From: a virus
Lineage: Duplodnaviria > Heunggongvirae > Uroviricota > Caudoviricetes
Reading direction: 5' to 3' (one strand)
DNA length: 11,990 nt
Virus record (IMG/VR): IMGVR_UViG_2718217868_000007
Coordinates: 1-11,990 of that record
Shown here: positions 2,404 through 11,990 of the stretch, in pieces
Layout: the number at the start of each line of letters is the position of its first letter
Position numbering within the stretch: position 1 is the stretch's first letter
Made by a program: the position numbers and the translations under genes
Notes under the pieces: model-generated
Told to the model about the DNA's origin: nothing
The model's input: the letters and a program-made list of their open reading frames with translations, nothing else
The model's database searches: none

Positions 2404-4737
2404 TCAGGTTGTTGCAGGGTCGTCACATTTTGGCAGCCAGTCGCCGTAGCTTTCCTCTTTCAGCGTCAGGTTGGTCTGTATCCCCTGTTTGGTATGGCGC
2501 TTCTCGTAATTCAGTCCATATTCCTTCAGCATCACCGGCAGCCCCAGCCCGAACATTTTCAGACTGAGTACATTCCGGTAGCCGTTTGCCTCCATGTAGG
2601 CCAGATAGGCGTGATAGAGGTATTTACGGTAATTACGCGGGATGATACTGGCGTTCCCCATATACATGCCGCTGGTCTGCGGCAGGGTTTCCAGATAGCC
2701 GATAAAATCAAACGTCGGGTCGGCATCCCGTTTGATGTTCAGTGCCTCGTCTGAGTTCTGCTGGGACTGAAGCAGTGACCGGGCGAGCATCGGGTCGCTG
2801 AACTTCTGCATCAGGTGACGCACGATGACCGCCAGCTCGCGGGTGATTTTGTCCTTAAGCTGCGGGTCGCGCTCCTGCGGGGCTATCTGTTCCGGGAAGT
2901 GAATAATCACCCGCCGGCGTGACACGCCGCCGCTGCGGTCGGTGAAGCGCATCGGGTTATTGTTCACGGCCAGAATCACCGCCGGGATATGCGTGGAGTA
3001 CGCATCCCGGTATTTCGGGTCCACGGACACCGCATCGCCGCCGGTGATGGCCTTGAGTCCGGCACCGTCGCCGCTCCATTTTTCCTGGTCCGGCAGGCGT
3101 ATCAGTGAGAAGCCAGTTAACGCGGCACGTTCACGCGGGGATTCCAGCGTCTCGATGGTGGCCGACGTGGCGTTATCCTCCCCGGCCAGCAGGGTGGCTA
3201 TTTCGGCCATGATACTTTTGCCGCTGCCGCCGGGACCGGTCACCTCCAGAAAGAGCTGCCAGTCGTAGCGGTTTGCCAGCACCATAAACAGTGCGGCCAG
3301 AATCACGTCGCGTTTTTCCGCACGGCCACCGGCGGCACGGTCAAGCCAGCGCCAGAACGCGGGGGCGTGGGTCTCCAGCGTTTCACCGTCCACCGGCGGG
3401 GTGAAATCCACATCGCACAGGGTGCGCATCCAGTGTGACGGACTGTGCGGGTGGAACGTGCCGTTCTGCGTGTCGAGCACGCCGTTACGAAAGCCAATCA
3501 GGCGGCGGGAGGGGGCTTCCTGCTGCGGAATAATCAGCTTCAGGGTGTCCACCACGGAGGCCACCTTCCCGGAGGAGAACGGCGCGCGCAGACGCTGAAA
3601 CAGCCCGGCCACATCCCGGGCAAAGTCCTGTGGTGGCAGCACCTTCCAGACACCATTTTCATAACGGGACAGAAGCTGGCCGTTGGCATCGACCGCGAGC
3701 GCCTCGCCGTAATGCTCATAGATACGCATGGCCTTTTCGCTGGTACTCATGGCGGAAAACTCCGCTTCGCTCATGGTGTCGAACGGGCTTTCAGCCGGTG
3801 GCCGGATGGCATCGTAAATGGCCTTACGGGTGGCCTCCCCGCCGTACTGCGTGAAGGCATCATTCCAGTCACCGAAGACCGGCGGCAGGGCAACAACGCC
3901 CTCACACGCATCTGCGGCTGCGGCGGCTTTTTTCTGGCCGTCACCGCTGAGGTCACGGTCTGCGGCAAGGACAATCTGACAGGCCGGATGCTTCTGCCGG
4001 GCAAGGCTGGCCAGAGAAAGGAGATTCACGGAAGAAAGCGCCACCATCACCGTTTCACCGGTCAGGTGATGCACGGTAAGTGCGGTCGCGTATCCCTCCG
4101 CTATCCACAGACGTTTTCCGGCCTGATTCTGTCCTTCAAGGGTGTGACAGGTGCCCCTGACCTGTCCGCCTTTCAGGGTGCGCTTACGGCCGTCAGCACT
4201 GATTAACTGAAGGTTAACCAGTTCGCCGCTGTCGTCATACAGTGGCACCACAAGGTCACCGGCACGCCAGCTCACGCCACCGGCTCTGTGTGTGCCGGTC
4301 AGCATCCGGCATTCCCGGCCGGGAAAGCCCTTGCGGGTCAGGTAGGCGTTACCGGTTCCGGGACGGGTTTTCGCCATCAGGGTTTGTGCCAGTGCGGCGG
4401 CGTTCTTCCGGGCAGCGTCTGTTTCAGCACCGGCGGCAGCCGTCACTGCCGGGTCAGCCGGGGGCAGGCTGCCGGTCACGGCAGCCACCTTTGCGGCCGC
4501 ATCGGACGGGGAAACACCAAACACCTTTTCAACCAGTTTCAGGCCGTCACCGGCACCACACTGATTGCAGTACCAGGTGCCGCGCCCCTCCCTGTCATCA
4601 AAACGGAAGCGGTCACTCCCGCCACAGACCGGACAGGGCTGATGACGGTTTTTCAGCACCTGAATCCCCAGCGCCGGGAGAATACGCGGCCAGTGGCCGA
4701 GCGCATGGCTGACGGTGGCGGTTACGTTCATTTTCAT
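2404..4737 (-). CDS. alpha: P4 alpha-type bifunctional primase-helicase / origin-binding replication protein, 777 aa
   Basis: 777 aa, the same length as P4 alpha. N-terminal zinc-binding primase motif CPVCGG...WYCNQCG, Walker A GPGGSGKS in the central NTPase domain, RBS AGGAG 9 nt upstream of the ATG at 4737. Flanked by TGTTCACC iteron clusters, the known alpha binding sites. Confidence 0.92.
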   Translation of the reverse strand: MKMNVTATVSHALGHWPRILPALGIQVLKNRHQPCPVCGGSDRFRFDDREGRGTWYCNQCGAGDGLKLVEKVFGVSPSDAAAKVAAVTGSLPPADPAVTAAAGAETDAARKNAAALAQTLMAKTRPGTGNAYLTRKGFPGRECRMLTGTHRAGGVSWRAGDLVVPLYDDSGELVNLQLISADGRKRTLKGGQVRGTCHTLEGQNQAGKRLWIAEGYATALTVHHLTGETVMVALSSVNLLSLASLARQKHPACQIVLAADRDLSGDGQKKAAAAADACEGVVALPPVFGDWNDAFTQYGGEATRKAIYDAIRPPAESPFDTMSEAEFSAMSTSEKAMRIYEHYGEALAVDANGQLLSRYENGVWKVLPPQDFARDVAGLFQRLRAPFSSGKVASVVDTLKLIIPQQEAPSRRLIGFRNGVLDTQNGTFHPHSPSHWMRTLCDVDFTPPVDGETLETHAPAFWRWLDRAAGGRAEKRDVILAALFMVLANRYDWQLFLEVTGPGGSGKSIMAEIATLLAGEDNATSATIETLESPRERAALTGFSLIRLPDQEKWSGDGAGLKAITGGDAVSVDPKYRDAYSTHIPAVILAVNNNPMRFTDRSGGVSRRRVIIHFPEQIAPQERDPQLKDKITRELAVIVRHLMQKFSDPMLARSLLQSQQNSDEALNIKRDADPTFDFIGYLETLPQTSGMYMGNASIIPRNYRKYLYHAYLAYMEANGYRNVLSLKMFGLGLPVMLKEYGLNYEKRHTKQGIQTNLTLKEESYGDWLPKCDDPATT

Positions 4738-6133: not shown

Positions 6134-6522
6134 AAGGCAACCTCCGATAACAGCGTAAATGACGCTATCGCCGGAGTTCTCACGCTCGATGGCGATAGCC
6201 CAGACGGGGGTGAGAATACCGGCGTTATCGGAAACCGGCCAGCCCGGAGGCTGCCCCGCCTGAGCTACCATTGACTCAGTGGCATAACATGCGATTGCGA
6301 ACAGGATCATACCTGCACGGCAAACCACACGCCACACCATAATCTGGTGCTCTGTGGCGTTGATTGCGACACAAAAAAAGACGCATGGCGCGTCATATGT
6401 CGCCGATAACATACTCGGGTTCTCACGCCCGGCTGCCGATTTTGCGGCAGCGGAAAAACTATATCCGCAAATGCCGGAAAAAGGCAAGCCAGAAAAAGGG
6501 AGTTTTTGCAGAGCGGGCATCA
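6134..6522 (-). promoter_or_regulatory. untranslated leader of the left operon; candidate early promoter and RNA-based immunity region
   Basis: About 390 bp between vis and the first small gene with no convincing ORF. Contains a terminator-like hairpin and a 9-mer present twice (6403-6411; 6144-6152, abutting the SD) whose complement lies between them (6220-6231). P4 encodes its immunity RNA in this leader. Confidence 0.3.
6373..6394 (-). terminator. terminator-like hairpin plus T-run inside the leader
   Basis: Minus strand reads a 5-bp-stem hairpin GACGC-GCCAT-GCGTC (6380-6394) followed by TTTTTTT (plus-strand A run 6373-6379). The stem is short, so strength is uncertain. Confidence 0.4.
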
Positions 6523-6891: not shown

Positions 6892-6909
6892 TGTTCCGGC
6901 AGCCTTACA
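6892..6909 (-). promoter_or_regulatory. TGT-N12-ACA dyad; candidate Ogr/Delta-dependent late promoter (PLL-like) reading leftward into vis
   Basis: TGT (6892-6894), 12 nt, ACA (6907-6909). A TCACAAA-type element (6861-6855) sits ~43 nt downstream on the minus strand, with vis starting ~110 nt from the dyad centre. Consensus is from P2/P4 late promoters. Confidence 0.45.
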
Positions 6910-7252: not shown

Positions 7253-7270
7253 TGTGTCAGGGCTGGCACA
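7253..7270 (+). promoter_or_regulatory. TGT-N12-ACA dyad; candidate Delta/Ogr-activated late promoter (Psid-like)
   Basis: TGT (7253-7255), 12 nt, ACA (7268-7270). TCACAAT element at 7304-7310 lies ~45 nt downstream. The sid ATG at 7343 is preceded by RBS GAGGAG (7330-7335). Confidence 0.5.
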
Positions 7271-8647: not shown

Positions 8648-9220
8648 ATGGAAAGCACAGCCTTACAGCAGGCCTTTGACACCTGTCAGAATAACAAAGC
8701 AGCATGGCTGCAACGCAAAAATGAGCTGGCTGCGGCCGAACAGGAATATCTGCGGCTTCTGTCCGGGGAAGGCAGAAACGTCAGTCGCCTGGACGAATTA
8801 CGCAATATTATCGAAGTCAGAAAATGGCAGGTGAATCAGGCTGCCGGTCGTTATATTCGTTCGCATGAAGCCGTTCAGCACATCAGCATCCGCGACCGGC
8901 TGAATGATTTTATGCAGCAGCACGGCACAGCACTGGCGGCCGCACTGGCACCGGAGCTGATGGGCTACAGTGAGCTGACGGCCATTGCCCGAAACTGTGC
9001 CATACAGCGTGCCACAGATGCCCTGCGTGAAGCCCTTCTGTCCTGGCTTGCGAAGAGGGAAAAAATTAATTATTCCGCACAGGATAGCGACATTTTAACG
9101 ACCATCGGATTCAGGCCTGACGCGGCTTCGGTGGATGACAGCCGTGAAAAATTCACTCCTGCGCAGAACATGATTTTTTCGCGTAAAAGTGCGCAACTGG
9201 CATCACATCAGTCTGTGTAA
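8648..9220 (+). CDS. psu: Psu-like polarity suppression / capsid decoration protein, 190 aa
   Basis: Third gene of the sid-delta-psu operon, 190 aa as in P4 Psu, followed by a terminator and the cos region. Assigned by synteny and size. Confidence 0.75.
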   Translation: MESTALQQAFDTCQNNKAAWLQRKNELAAAEQEYLRLLSGEGRNVSRLDELRNIIEVRKWQVNQAAGRYIRSHEAVQHISIRDRLNDFMQQHGTALAAALAPELMGYSELTAIARNCAIQRATDALREALLSWLAKREKINYSAQDSDILTTIGFRPDAASVDDSREKFTPAQNMIFSRKSAQLASHQSV

Positions 9221-9384: not shown

Positions 9385-9403
9385 GGCGAGGCGGGGAAAG
9401 CAC
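9385..9403. other. cos-like site: P2/P4-type 19-nt cohesive-end sequence
   Basis: Exact 19-mer GGCGAGGCGGGGAAAGCAC, followed by TGCGCGC, which matches the P2/P4 cohesive end as I recall it. Lies between psu and the cargo locus, as expected for a P4-type element. Confidence 0.65.
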
Positions 9404-9838
9404 TGCGCGCCAGCATCAAAGTGTTTAGATAATTTCGCGGCCTGAGGGTGACGACACGTAGTGCAGATTCGTACGAGTGCCTGTTACTGTCGGATACTAT
9501 TCAAGGGCAGCACAACCTATGAAATGACAATGCTAAAGGAGACGAAGAAGCCGCCTTAAGGCGGCATACATCAGTCACTTGTTGGGTGCCGAAGGCGTAA
9601 CTTTTAAATCTGGTCATATAATGTCTTGCAATTTTTTTACATCGTTTATTCGTTGCTATAGTAACCTGTACCAATCCATATACCAGTTTAAAGCCGTCAG
9701 ATAAATTAGGCTATCATGGAGCAGACGGCACGGCGGTACATGAGTAACGTACCTATTTTCTCAACTTGTTTAAGATGCTGTGCAATACTGACGCATGGGA
9801 GCATGCTTCATCATTTTTTTGTATCCGGATATGGAATG

Positions 9839-9866
9839 TTGACAATCAAAATGTTATCAATATCTT
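9839..9866 (+). promoter_or_regulatory. sigma70-like promoter for the Doc/Fic cargo gene (TTGACA, 16-nt spacer, TATCTT)
   Basis: Perfect -35 TTGACA (9839-9844), 16-nt spacer, -10 TATCTT (9861-9866). Gene RBS AAGGA at 9890-9894 and ATG at 9901. Confidence 0.45.
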
Positions 9867-9900
9867 TCATGTGATCTAAAAATCGTAATAAGGATAGTGA

Positions 9901-10629
9901 ATGCGTATTGGAACTGTAGAAGAAATTCACAATTTTTTAAGTGAATACTATATCAACTCCGAAGACCCTATATCCCCACCAGGAGTGAAAGATGTGGGAT
10001 TACTAGAATCAGCGTGTGCAAGACCGTTTGCTTCCGCTGGTGGGCAGGATGCTTTCGGCGATGTATACCACAAAGCAGCAGCACTATTCCATGGAATTAT
10101 TTCCAACCACTGTTTTTATAACGGAAACAAAAGAACCGCATTATTATCAGCCCTTTATTTTTTGAGTGAACATAACCTTTGGTTAGAAAGATGTAATGAT
10201 GAGGAAATGTTTGAATTTACTCGTCAGGTTGCCGCTCATGAAATATGTGAAAAAAGGGATGACGAGATAGATATTATAGCAGATTGGTTTAACAGAAATA
10301 CTCGGCGAATAGTGAAAGGAGAAAAACCCCTTAACTTTTCGAGCCTACGAGAAAGTTTATCTCAATTTGATTTCCAACTAGAAGATGAAGGGCAATATGC
10401 ATTCATCTATAAAAATGGTGAGATCGTTGAGAAAGTGCTAAAAAAAGGGAAGCAAGGAATGCAAGAATATGATCAAGCATATATTGCTGAGCTTCGAAAG
10501 CGCTTAGATTTAACGCCTGAACATGGGGTTGATAGCGCTCGTTTTTATGGGCAGAAAGGTTTAAATGAGGATTTGAATGAATTTATGAAACTTCGTGTAA
10601 AAGTTTTTGATTGGCTAGCCAAGATCTAA
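9901..10629 (+). CDS. Fic/Doc-family protein (Doc-type HxFxNGNKR motif) with ~110-aa uncharacterised C-terminal extension; satellite cargo gene
   Basis: 242 aa. Residues 70-78 HCFYNGNKR (nt 10108-10134) fit the Doc-type HxFx(D/N)(A/G)NKR active-site motif. No Phd-like partner ORF is evident nearby. Markedly AT-rich relative to the P4 backbone. Has its own promoter, RBS and terminator. Confidence 0.85.
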   Translation: MRIGTVEEIHNFLSEYYINSEDPISPPGVKDVGLLESACARPFASAGGQDAFGDVYHKAAALFHGIISNHCFYNGNKRTALLSALYFLSEHNLWLERCNDEEMFEFTRQVAAHEICEKRDDEIDIIADWFNRNTRRIVKGEKPLNFSSLRESLSQFDFQLEDEGQYAFIYKNGEIVEKVLKKGKQGMQEYDQAYIAELRKRLDLTPEHGVDSARFYGQKGLNEDLNEFMKLRVKVFDWLAKI

Positions 10630-10635
10630 AACTTA

Positions 10636-10660
10636 AGAAGCCTGCGTTTCGCAGGCTTCT
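10636..10660. terminator. hairpin terminator between the convergent Doc/Fic gene and int
   Basis: Perfect inverted repeat AGAAGCCTGCG-TTT-CGCAGGCTTCT with AT-rich flanks on both sides, placed between two convergent stop codons (10629 and 10731). Confidence 0.5.
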
Positions 10661-10730: not shown

Positions 10731-11990
10731 TTACACCTGCCTTTTTGCGAAATCGTATGGTGTAATATAATCAACAGTGTTTTTTTCAAGATAATCGGCC
10801 CACCACTGTACCATCAAACGACGTTCATCCAAATGCTCAGATGTATGGATATAAGCTGCACGTACATTATTACGCTCTGAATGGCTCAACTGTCGTTCTA
10901 TCGCGTCATCACTCCATAACCCTGACTCACCGAGCGCTCCACGCGCCATCGTCCTAAATCCATGCCCGCAAACCTCGGTTTTCGTGTCATACCCCATCGC
11001 ACGCAATGCGCTGTTTACCGTGTTTTCACTCATAACTTTAGTTGCGTCATGATCCCCCGGAAAGAGTAGCTCTTTATCACCACTAATCTGTTTTAACTGG
11101 TCTAACAAAATCATCGCCTGCCAACTAAGAGGAACAATATGCTCCTCTTTCATCTTCATGCCACGATACGAGTAACGAACACCTTTAATTTCTTCTCGTT
11201 TTGCAGGTATACGCCAAAGCGATTTATCGAAGTCGAACTCATCCCAACGTGCGAAACGTAACTCACTGGAACGCACAAAAGTTAGTAATGAAAGTTCGAC
11301 CGCGATCCGTGTCATTACACGGCCACGATATGCCGCAAGACGTGCGAGAAACTCAGGAAACCGGCTAGAGGGTAGAGCTGGATAGTGTCGCGCTTTAGTT
11401 GTCGATAAAGCACCGGCCATATCACTGGCTGGATTTGAGTCGATGTAATCGTTCTGTACGGCATAACGCATAATGGCCGTAACGCGCTGCTGAAGACGCT
11501 GCGCCACGTCATGCTTACCACTGGCATCAACTTTTTTAATCGGGGCTAACAAGTGACTGGTTTTGAGCTGGCGAATGTCGGACAAACCGATATGAGGGAA
11601 GATATAAAGCTCAAGGTAGCGAAGAACGCGCGATCGATGATCTTCACTCCAGCGCTTGTTACTAGCATGCCATTCACGAGCAATGGTTTCGAAAGTATAT
11701 GCCCCCGAATTCTCAGCCTTAGCTTCCTTCTGTTCGGCTTTTGGGTCAATGCCCTGCACTAACAGCTTTTTAGCTTCGTCACGCTTTGCTCTTGCCTGAG
11801 CAAGGGTCACAGTGGGCCAAACACCAAAAGCGAGGCGATCCTCTTTTTTGTCAGAGGGACGTCTGTATTTCATGCGCCAGTATTTAGAACCCTTGGCCGA
11901 AACCTCGAGATACAAACCGCCGCCATCGGCCATTTTGTAGGTTTTGTCTTTTGGCTTTGCGGTCTCGACTTGTCTGGCGTTGAGCTTCAT
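10731..11990 (-). CDS. int: P4-type tyrosine integrase, 419 aa
   Basis: N-terminus MKLNARQVETAKPKDKTYKMADGGGLYLEV is characteristic of P4-family integrases. C-terminal catalytic region has H-x-x-R (GHGFRTMARG) and the tyrosine in RAAYIH. The ATG is the last codon of the window, so the promoter and tRNA/att site are off-window. Confidence 0.93.
   Translation of the reverse strand: MKLNARQVETAKPKDKTYKMADGGGLYLEVSAKGSKYWRMKYRRPSDKKEDRLAFGVWPTVTLAQARAKRDEAKKLLVQGIDPKAEQKEAKAENSGAYTFETIAREWHASNKRWSEDHRSRVLRYLELYIFPHIGLSDIRQLKTSHLLAPIKKVDASGKHDVAQRLQQRVTAIMRYAVQNDYIDSNPASDMAGALSTTKARHYPALPSSRFPEFLARLAAYRGRVMTRIAVELSLLTFVRSSELRFARWDEFDFDKSLWRIPAKREEIKGVRYSYRGMKMKEEHIVPLSWQAMILLDQLKQISGDKELLFPGDHDATKVMSENTVNSALRAMGYDTKTEVCGHGFRTMARGALGESGLWSDDAIERQLSHSERNNVRAAYIHTSEHLDERRLMVQWWADYLEKNTVDYITPYDFAKRQV

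Follow-up and report, generated by a model that had tools for sequence, protein, structure and literature searches.

Known systems comparable to the Doc-like protein

In textbooks Doc figures as the toxin of a two-gene addiction module. Its Fic core is short of two helices, which the antitoxin Phd provides, and it is through this completion of the Fic fold that Phd neutralises Doc (Kinch 2009, PMC2686095). The Doc proteins of P1 and Salmonella stop growth when Phd is absent (PMC9207808). The protein described here, encoded in a window of 11,990 nucleotides (the whole stretch of DNA that was analysed), seems instead to be a stand-alone kinase with a built-in antitoxin helix and, in addition, a domain derived from a second family of toxins. 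It resembles P1 Doc of the Phd-Doc pair (TIGR01550) in the motif HxFxNGNKR and in its carriage on a mobile element, but it has no phd gene and a 109-residue extension stands behind Doc, so that the equivalent of the neutralising helix is apparently fused to the toxin's own C-terminus. Since no labile antitoxin is made separately, post-segregational killing is ruled out.

The second family is that of the HicA toxins, mRNA interferases with a dsRBD-like fold (PDB 1whz, 5yrz, 6g26, 4p78 and 6hpb). The likeness lies in the fold and in a weak Pfam signal in distant members of our family; unlike HicA, the domain in the window protein lacks the catalytic histidine and a HicB partner, and it is placed between Doc and a conserved tail. 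This Doc-HicA-like context is not among the 14 HicA contexts of Gerdes 2024 (PMC10865869), and in the literature searched we found no description of a Doc-HicA-like fusion, the protein appearing there only as 'Fic'.

Close parallels in design are CapRel(SJ46) and EzeT, each a single polypeptide with no partner gene (PMC9712102, PMC10865869). CapRel joins an N-terminal translation-targeting toxin to a C-terminal regulatory region, the order that we propose here, while the order in EzeT is reversed; CapRel is also carried on prophages, as is the 242-aa subfamily to which the window protein belongs (PMC9712102). Their toxSAS and zeta kinase domains are, however, unrelated to Doc, and their cis-inhibition has been proven experimentally, whereas for the Doc-like protein we infer it.

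Two further groups of Fic proteins are comparable. In class III Fic proteins (NmFic and HpFic) the protein's own C-terminal helix completes the fold (PMC2686095); in the Doc-like protein the terminal helix covaries with the core. The window protein differs from class III in that a whole HicA-like domain precedes the helix and in that its catalytic motif is of the kinase type (NKR) and not of the AMPylase type (GNGR). The class III inhibitory motif [S/T]xxxE[G/N] does not occur in residues 205-242, where the nearest string is S212-A-R-F-Y-G217. SoFic is likewise a lone gene of the Fic superfamily, and it acts in anti-phage defence (Millman 2022).

The P4-like satellite and its hotspot

The host element is a P4-like satellite of E. 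coli. It has the P4 immunity RNAs C4 and isrK, and a tRNA-Leu lies just outside the window, beyond the P4-type tyrosine integrase gene int (10731-11990, minus strand; RefSeq), which forms the right flank of the hotspot. The left flank is psu, encoding the polarity suppression protein (8648-9220, plus strand; RefSeq, with a Pfam Psu match on the Klebsiella counterpart). At the left edge of the variable part of the hotspot stands the 19-nt GGCGAGGCGGGGAAAGCAC (9385-9403, plus strand), which we take to be the P2/P4 cohesive-end (cos) sequence and which has one exact match in the window against 0 expected by chance. Between psu/cos and int the Doc-like gene is the only gene, in E. coli as in Klebsiella.

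The gene and its Doc domain

The ORF list, the RefSeq annotation and about 350 homologues agree on a complete two-domain Doc-family gene of 242 aa at 9901-10629 (plus strand, stop codon included), whose product is labelled by RefSeq as WP_073464939, 'death-on-curing family toxin'. A putative ribosome-binding site, AAGGA, at 9890-9894 (plus strand) is kept in the Klebsiella and IMG/VR homologues. A consensus scan placed a promoter-like site, TTGACA-16 nt-TATCTT, at 9839-9866 (plus strand), 35 nt 5' of the ATG; it has 10 of 12 consensus matches, though such sites are no commoner than the shuffled expectation. Downstream, the terminator scan and the sequence reveal a GC-rich hairpin (10636-10660) between the convergent Doc-like gene and int, which the scan rates as an intrinsic terminator of int, on the minus strand; it probably ends the Doc-like transcript as well.

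Judged by profile matches and catalytic residues, residues 1-133 (9901-10299, plus strand) are a Doc (Fic-fold) kinase domain of six helices with an intact kinase motif. Pfam Fic matches residues 6-88 (E=2.6e-13), TIGR01550 DOC_P1 matches residues 5-118 (E=2.9e-14), and the Fic/Doc alpha-helical fold is present in the N-terminal half of the protein. The catalytic loop H70-C-F-Y-N-G-N-K-R78 (10108-10134, plus strand) follows the Doc-type definition HxFx(D/N)(A/G)NKR, which reportedly goes back to Castro-Roa and colleagues in 2013. H70, N76, K77 and R78 occur in 378/378 homologues, and F72, N74 and G75 in at least 375 of them. Since the Doc motif is kept in all 378 homologues, the enzyme is under selection.

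This constancy bears on a further reading, in which the toxin is an orphan or in decay: a Phd gene elsewhere would neutralise it in trans, or it would be inactive, and the extension would be incidental. The gene is indeed rare, being present in 8 of 5,426 complete genomes of E. coli; an IS element interrupts one E. coli allele, and two metagenomic relatives are frameshifted. However, the 242-aa length is fixed, the catalytic motif is kept over 378 sequences from many phyla, the extension is always present in this Doc clade, and the putative groove for Phd is apparently filled by the protein's own helix. We therefore regard decay or orphanhood as very improbable.

The C-terminal extension

A preliminary description of this DNA had drawn attention to an uncharacterised C-terminal extension of about 110 aa on the Doc-like domain, at 10270-10629 (residues 124-242). 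It is borne out for residues 134-242, which have no at-threshold match in Pfam, NCBIfam, PADLOC or the PDB sequences, and sequence searches with the extension alone against Pfam and the PDB sequences likewise returned nothing significant. The same description had called the region charged and helical-looking; it is not purely helical, the model containing a three-stranded sheet. As modelled, the extension is a structured, four-part region and not an unstructured charged tail.

Almost every one of the ~350 homologues, which are 55-95% identical, has a length of exactly 242 aa, and 23 of 112 extension columns are invariant, so the extension is not chance sequence. Pairwise identity is lowest in the HicA-like part (0.53), compared with 0.64 in Doc and 0.66 in the tail. 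The basic linker (residues 134-145, T-R-R-I-V-K-G-E-K-P-L-N; 10300-10335, plus strand), delimited by alignments A1 and A4 and by composition, includes R135, which is invariant within the 242-aa family. Further on, the signature motif G209-V-D-S-A-R-F-Y216 (GxDSxxFY; 10525-10548, plus strand) was recognised across 378 superfamily members. Its residues G209 (99% in the near and 97% in the distant subset of the 378), D211 (100% and 96%), S212 (100% and 86%), F215 (100% in both) and Y216 (100% and 97%) are strongly kept; alignments A4 and A6 show no variation at D211, F215 and Y216, and these three, together with R135, R199 and L239, are near-invariant across a superfamily whose members share about 30% identity. 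In conservation, GxDSxxFY and the terminal helix equal the enzyme.

Together, Doc and the extension form the core of a large superfamily, so far unannotated, that comprises at least 1,618 protein clusters. Everything that the extension profile recovers is a Doc-linked protein or a fragment. In longer relatives a strong N-terminal S1 RNA-binding domain is added, and also IF2_N-like modules.

Such conservation could mean that the extension is a constitutive accessory module, in which the helix completes the Fic fold and stabilises the enzyme while the HicA-like domain and linker define its substrate. We consider this reading rather unlikely, and equally its more specific form, in which the module tethers the kinase to RNA, to the ribosome or to the EF-Tu ternary complex and activity depends on how strongly the gene is expressed or on the substrate's state; a role in defence or superinfection exclusion could be accommodated by it. 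It gains from an extension nearly as conserved as the catalytic domain, from the strongly basic linker (pI 11.7, computed on residues 131-145) and from the domains added in longer relatives. The added S1 and IF2_N-like domains point to substrate or ribosome targeting over sensing, and the high conservation of the extension across phyla is better explained by a cellular partner that is itself conserved than by a sensor caught up in an arms race. Against it, a Doc-type kinase that is always active and has no antitoxin ought to be toxic.

The HicA-like domain

In the predicted model, residues 146-204 (10336-10512, plus strand) are a HicA-like, dsRBD-type alpha-beta-beta-beta-alpha fold that lacks the RNase histidine. 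The sequence signal is faint. The Pfam HicA_toxin model found no match in the window protein or in 34 close relatives and stayed below threshold throughout, its best score among distant members being 25.4 bits (E=1.6e-5) against a cut-off of 27; HicA_toxin is nevertheless one of only two secondary families that recur among 111 members of the superfamily. With hhalign, the extension profile matched an E. coli HicA sequence with a probability of 0.9%. The fold of HicA is of the dsRBD-like, RNA-binding kind (PMC10865869), which would suit an accessory module that binds RNA, but no dsRBD or HicA sequence match at threshold stands behind such binding.

The column of the catalytic histidine (GSH motif) holds His in just 4 of the 378 homologues; the window protein has Y166, and the commonest triplets are GNR and GKT. 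An active RNase here would make the protein a dual toxin, at once a kinase and an mRNA interferase. One relative, L196, does retain GGSH, but given the loss of the histidine in the window protein and in nearly all homologues and a Pfam model that never reaches threshold, this is the least credible of the alternatives and we think it extremely improbable.

The terminal helix

Model, covariation and motif together delimit a C-terminal amphipathic helix at residues 221-242, LNEDLNEFMKLRVKVFDWLAKI (10561-10626, plus strand), of which residues 221-240 are helical in the predicted model. Model confidence in the helix rises only if Doc is included: its pLDDT values are 91/82 for the full-length protein, against 67/62 when the extension is modelled by itself. 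Covariation was examined by mean-field DCA on 378 homologues (a modest effective number of 275). Twenty inter-domain pairs exceeded z=3.7, against none in three permutations, a null that ignores phylogeny. The pairs K30-V235, S89-F228, C39-F236, K30-A240, Y16-F228 and L85-F228 scored z 3.9-4.9; C39-F236 recurred in 3/3 growing data sets, and K30-V235 and K30-A240 in 2/3. Columns 96, 180, 187 and 222-224 consist of gaps by more than 20%, and any pair that includes one of them, such as D120-M187 or D120-N222, was for that reason set aside. The Doc residues that covary with the helix are 16, 30, 39, 51, 85 and 89, from which we infer that it sits in a groove of Doc helices 1, 2 and 4.

The helix also carries a motif, KY[RY]xxLxxLA in its superfamily form, from which the window protein deviates by R232 in place of Y. 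A related pattern, Y...[LIVM]..L[AGSV], is found at the extreme C-terminus of 14 of 131 small ORFs adjoining Doc-only relatives and of 19 of 5724 other small ORFs, a 36-fold enrichment (odds ratio; Fisher p=2e-15) for a regular expression that was defined post hoc, and the ORFs in the antitoxin position that carry it belong to only about five sequence families. An HMM of the 18-residue tail, which has low power, gave E=0.0076 as its best antitoxin match.

Of the two roles suggested earlier for the extension, an intramolecular inhibitor replacing Phd or a phage-sensing domain, the first is partly supported, for the last ~20 residues only, by two independent lines of computation, the covariation with Doc and the antitoxin-like motif. 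Because Phd neutralises Doc by completing the fold, a C-terminal region that lies inside the Fic fold cannot separate the alternatives. The helix could be purely structural, with no inhibition, and in class III Fic proteins a permuted C-terminal helix is an ordinary part of the fold (PMC2686095), as an accessory module would have it. The terminal motif, however, is like the ends of neutralising antitoxins and unlike any known targeting element.

Absence of a separate antitoxin

The preliminary description was also correct in finding no separate antitoxin. Neither upstream nor downstream of the gene does the window hold a conserved ORF that could be an adjacent Phd-type antitoxin gene, and no neighbour family is kept across 120 homologous loci. 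The 680-bp gap upstream contains small ORFs only, none of them conserved, while the stop codon is separated from int by about 100 bp that include the terminator-like hairpin. The 52-aa ORF at 9716-9874 was considered as an antitoxin and rejected: it overlaps the promoter-like site, diverges in Klebsiella with no codon-level constraint, and is missing beside homologues at 81-90% protein identity. Genuine unfused pairs, with the whole extension as its own gene, were not found; the only two candidates for a natural split into Doc and extension genes, L194 and L196, are both metagenomic two-domain genes with a frameshift. Because no neighbour family is conserved in the 120 loci and the extension profile finds only Doc-linked proteins, we treat the system as a single gene. 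Genes for Doc plus extension should not be annotated as orphan halves of toxin-antitoxin pairs.

Proposed mechanism

The protein probably works as a toxin that needs no partner and inhibits itself, a design not so far reported in the Doc family. In our proposal the terminal helix would act in cis as the C-terminal helix of Phd acts in trans, completing the Fic fold and keeping the kinase off. The HicA-derived domain and the basic linker would form a regulatory or targeting module, whose ligand may be RNA, the ribosome or a phage product, with the variable sheet of the HicA-like domain as a candidate sensing surface. Infection would release the lock, and the kinase would then phosphorylate a translation factor (by analogy EF-Tu, which Doc modifies at Thr382/383 to arrest translation) and stop translation, so that infection would be aborted and the host population of the satellite protected. 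The whole would be a fused toxin-antitoxin with the logic of CapRel and EzeT, made from Doc, HicA-like and Phd-C-like parts. Going by sequence, we give about an even chance to this reading, that of a self-contained, helix-inhibited, single-chain Doc-family kinase which aborts infection and is the sole cargo of a P4 hotspot.

If autoinhibition is true, this would be a third, structurally independent example of a fused toxin-antitoxin after CapRel and EzeT; it would account for at least 1,600 clusters that are labelled 'type II toxin-antitoxin death-on-curing toxin' and have no antitoxin gene, and it would add a compact 242-aa candidate anti-phage system to the P4 hotspot. More tentatively, and as a possibility on the unlikely side, the family may be an unnamed and widespread single-gene immune system in which a Phd-like helix is the lock, a dead, HicA-derived RNA-binding domain is the sensor of an infection signal, and EF-Tu is phosphorylated. 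Candidate signals would be phage RNA, a phage protein or a perturbed translation apparatus. HicA, domesticated as a sensor or antitoxin scaffold for Doc, would then be the first toxin family put to such use in the service of another.

Carriage and distribution

The gene might also serve its mobile element otherwise than by anti-phage defence, for instance by tuning host translation during maintenance or induction of the satellite or prophage, or by manipulating the helper phage; we hold the general idea to be improbable, and these examples of it no less so. EF-Tu is phosphorylated by P1 Doc in P1vir infection (PMC13645617), which would be in keeping with such a role. Table S1 of Rousset 2022 (PMC9122126) catalogues the protein as hotspot cargo, 'Fic', and the gene is absent from the systems tested there. 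On the other side, the P4 psu-int hotspot is reported as a reservoir of anti-phage systems (PMC9122126), no Ogr/Delta-type TGT-N12-ACA dyad is found upstream of the gene, and family members also occur outside recognisable mobile elements.

PADLOC has no specific model for the Doc-like protein, which gave no full-length match to PDC-S23, PDC-M59B or SoFic. Membership of PDC-S23 was rejected, the match (E=1e-9) being limited to the Fic core, residues 35-114, at model positions 225-308 of 327. SoFic, an AMPylase-type Fic protein that is about 370 aa long and differs in its C-terminal domain, gave no match at E<=1 in PADLOC-DB v2.0.0, on the assumption that the library includes a SoFic model.

The carriers are very diverse, a point that a role other than defence can claim for itself. 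Near-full-length homologues occur on 19 IMG/VR contigs, and the 242-aa subfamily occupies accessory slots in P4 hotspots and in lambdoid, Mu-like and filamentous prophages. In Pseudomonas lambdoid prophages the homologue adjoins the CI repressor gene, in an Aeromonas Mu-like prophage it lies between tail genes, and a Vibrio filamentous phage also carries one.

Genomic context of the Doc-like gene

The window is an E. coli P4-like satellite prophage integrated beside tRNA-Leu; its sequence matches strain H6 at 100% identity, and 8 of 5,426 complete E. coli genomes carry it. On the minus strand it encodes the alpha primase (2404-4737) and int (10731-11990); psu (8648-9220), a sid-like gene and delta are also present. 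Rfam matches at 6188-6464 on the minus strand to C4 (76 bits), isrK (71 bits) and the c4-a1b1 target element (51 bits) make up its P4-type RNA immunity region. The 19-mer GGCGAGGCGGGGAAAGCAC, which we take to be the 19-nt cohesive end of P2/P4, has a single exact copy in the window (9385-9403, plus strand). Klebsiella shares the block around this copy, immediately 3' of psu, so the hotspot begins directly past cos. The only gene between cos and int is the Doc-like ORF at 9901-10629 (plus strand). This interval has been described as a variable hotspot and a reservoir of anti-phage systems (Rousset 2022, PMC9122126); Table S1 of that paper names the protein, WP_073464939, 'Fic' for strains H5 and H6, and its table of tested systems does not include it.

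To the left of the satellite, positions 1-2172 form a decayed patch that looks like what is left of an earlier island at this site. Within it are a sialate O-acetylesterase-like ORF marked partial by RefSeq, a 74-aa integrase remnant, and fragments annotated as an HNH endonuclease and as a phosphorothioated-DNA-binding restriction endonuclease. TGT-N12-ACA dyads, presumably of the type of Ogr/Delta activator sites, are found at 7253-7270 and 6892-6909, immediately 5' of the sid-like gene and in the vicinity of the divergent promoter region; a scan of the window found none upstream of the Doc-like gene, and their total does not exceed chance.

The Doc domain and the missing antitoxin

The preliminary description proposed a 242-aa ORF with a Doc-like N-terminal domain and no separate antitoxin, and both points are borne out. 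Pfam Fic spans residues 6-88 and TIGR01550 DOC_P1 residues 5-118. The catalytic loop is H70-C-F-Y-N-G-N-K-R78, which we take, after Castro-Roa 2013, to be the Doc (kinase) form of the Fic motif, and this motif is invariant in 378 aligned superfamily sequences. Around 350 homologues at 55-95% identity, nearly all exactly 242 aa long, come from Gamma- and Betaproteobacteria, Desulfovibrio and one Firmicute; in these, 23 of 112 extension columns are invariant. The 680-bp gap 5' of the gene holds no antitoxin gene, its small ORFs being unconserved, and the stop codon is followed by only about 100 bp, with a terminator-like hairpin, before int. Across 120 homologous loci there is no recurrent neighbour family except in near-identical copies of one element. 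A 52-codon ORF at 9716-9874 (plus strand) is probably spurious: it overlaps a promoter-like site and is absent from homologues at 81-90% protein identity. In Klebsiella an ORF of equal length takes its place, with similarity in the 3' half only.

Fold of the extension

The region from about residue 125 to 242 had been described as a helical-looking extension that could not be assigned to a family. The lack of assignment holds, at threshold, for residues 134-242 (approximate bounds) in Pfam, NCBIfam, PADLOC and PDB sequences. The helical description stands in part: an AlphaFold2 model (43 sequences, mean pLDDT 87.6, pTM 0.69) places six Doc helices in residues 3-133, followed by a short strand, a helix at 146-154, three strands within 158-180, a helix at 192-201, a short helix at 212-215 and a long helix at 221-240.

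The region from 146 to 204 is HicA-like. Weaker support comes from sequence, as Pfam HicA_toxin matches this region in distant relatives just below threshold (in one, P0139, the score is 25.4 bits where the cut-off is 27, with E=1.6e-5). The column of the HicA catalytic histidine contains His in only 4 of 378 sequences; the window protein has Y166 there, while most others read GNR or GKT, and on this basis the domain is read as catalytically dead. Its sheet is also the most variable part of the protein (pairwise identity 0.53 versus 0.64 for Doc and 0.66 for the tail), which would suit a sensing surface.

Coupling of the terminal helix to the Doc domain

Mean-field DCA was applied to three alignments of increasing size (204, 292 and 378 unique sequences), with up to 275 effective sequences at 80% identity. 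Helix-helix and strand ladders that agree with one another emerge from the top intra-domain pairs (such as A59-A84, V110-I126, V6-C39, F63-T107, S68-D120 and F168-K178). With columns of more than 20% gaps excluded, the strongest inter-domain pairs run between a single face of the terminal helix and Doc helices 1, 2 and 4, together with the loop that precedes helix 3 (z: K30-V235 4.9, S89-F228 4.4, C39-F236 4.3, K30-A240 4.2, Y16-F228 4.0, L85-F228 3.9, A51-F236 3.8). The order of these pairs implies that the helix would pack antiparallel on Doc helix 2, whose N-terminal end is itself coupled to the catalytic loop (D31-Y73, L34-C71, L35-T79). Twenty inter-domain pairs exceed z=3.7 versus none when extension rows were shuffled against Doc rows (maximum z 2.4-3.2), a null that is lenient because permuting removes phylogeny. 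The pLDDT of the terminal helix falls from 91/82 in the full-length model to 67/62 when it is modelled without the Doc domain, in line with docking. A terminal helix seated in a groove of the Doc domain is the predicted arrangement that the alignments support.

Two helices of the Fic core, the first and the permuted one, are missing from Doc and are replaced by Phd, and in the Fic structures 2f6s and 2g03 the protein's own C-terminus provides the permuted helix (Kinch 2009, PMC2686095). Many small ORFs adjoining Doc-only relatives, recovered alongside the two-domain homologues, end like SVAKYYSALNKLADK, TEYGDVLRRLGKEE or KKYDKALKRLVDK, similar to the superfamily tail FIxKYRxxLxRLAK. The pattern Y...[LIVM]..L[AGSV], devised after the data were seen, occurs in the last 22 residues of 14 of 131 such ORFs versus 19 of 5724 other small ORFs (odds ratio 36, Fisher p=2e-15, post hoc), the 14 representing only about five sequence families; 52 of 97 two-domain proteins also carry it. 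The 242-aa subfamily has R at position 232 in place of the motif Y. A resemblance of the terminal helix to antitoxin C-termini is supported by these comparisons, and it may reflect convergence on the same groove. Two metagenome loci, L194 (1159-2225) and L196 (945-1689), were considered as natural Doc/extension splits; both proved to be two-domain genes with a frameshift, which makes them pseudogenes or products of misassembly. In L196 the HicA-like part keeps the canonical GGSH, unlike 374 of the 378 family members.

On the favoured reading, the terminal helix would hold the Doc kinase off, as Phd does, with the HicA-derived domain and basic linker serving as a regulatory or targeting element. 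Once released, the kinase would phosphorylate a translation factor and the infection would abort. The main alternative is that the extension is a constitutive module that completes the fold and targets the substrate or ribosome. The high conservation of the extension speaks for such a module, and the toxicity expected of an unrestrained Doc speaks against it.

A superfamily of Doc-plus-extension proteins

The architecture is a superfamily rather than a one-off. A search of 1.84 billion representative proteins with the extension profile found 102 proteins; all full-length matches inspected carry the Doc motif directly N-terminal of the extension, and the short matches look like fragments. The Doc-plus-extension profile matched at least 1,618 protein clusters at E<=1e-10. 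Throughout, members are annotated only as 'death-on-curing family toxin'. Extension positions R135, L149, L153, R199, L204, G209, D211, S212, F215, Y216, L239 and A240 are near-invariant superfamily-wide.

Besides Fic, only HicA_toxin and IF2_N recur as families in 111 members. Most members are about 400 aa long and bear N-terminal IF2_N-like modules, singly or in pairs (best E=1.2e-6), and a strong S1 RNA-binding domain (E=8e-21) is present in one; the distant relatives concerned are P0141, P0154, P0167, P0269, P0280 and P0222. Such domains hint that the superfamily may act on or near the translation apparatus, and they also favour the constitutive targeting module.

The window protein has the fold and motif of Doc but not the bicistronic organisation that defines Phd-Doc. 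Its extension shares the HicA fold, but in sequence it scores below the HicA threshold, and the catalytic residue is missing. The inhibitory motif of class III Fic was not found in it, and it matches neither SoFic nor any PADLOC model as a member. The fused toxin-antitoxins CapRel and EzeT are closest in proposed function, although their parts are unrelated. Neither Doc nor Fic is mentioned in a survey of 14 HicA contexts (Gerdes 2024, PMC10865869), and our literature search found no paper describing a Doc, HicA-like and terminal helix architecture. The architecture and its breadth themselves are well established by the analysis.

Genomic habitats

In E. coli and Klebsiella the gene is the sole P4 hotspot cargo, and in Pseudomonas lambdoid prophages it adjoins the CI repressor gene. 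In the latter, at L002 (5312-6729) and likewise at L003-L005, L030 and L108-L112, a canonical Doc gene (161-176 aa, HPFFNANKR) and a 60-aa ORF ending in QYERAFEELAKV come before it; these loci carry a classical-looking Phd-like/Doc pair and the fused form in tandem. Elsewhere the homologue is an opposite-strand insert amid the tail genes of an Aeromonas Mu-like prophage, or an accessory gene of a Vibrio filamentous phage, and near-full-length homologues occur on 19 IMG/VR contigs. Small chromosomal islets carry it in Achromobacter, Desulfovibrio and Azotosporobacter; a small island of Desulfovibrio desulfuricans (L019, 1-8588), where it is accompanied by genes for a KAP-family NTPase, DUF6361 and DUF4875, is a possible defence island. 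Such patchy, mobile-element-linked spread is typical of accessory or defence genes.

Insertion sequences were seen at some of these loci. In E. coli ERR10430243 (L022, 1495-3423) a DDE_Tnp_1-family element interrupts the Doc domain, so that a 50-aa stub and a 140-aa ORF beginning at M103 remain, and in some Klebsiella satellites (L011 and L014, 4868-5712) an element lies between psu and the intact Doc-like gene.
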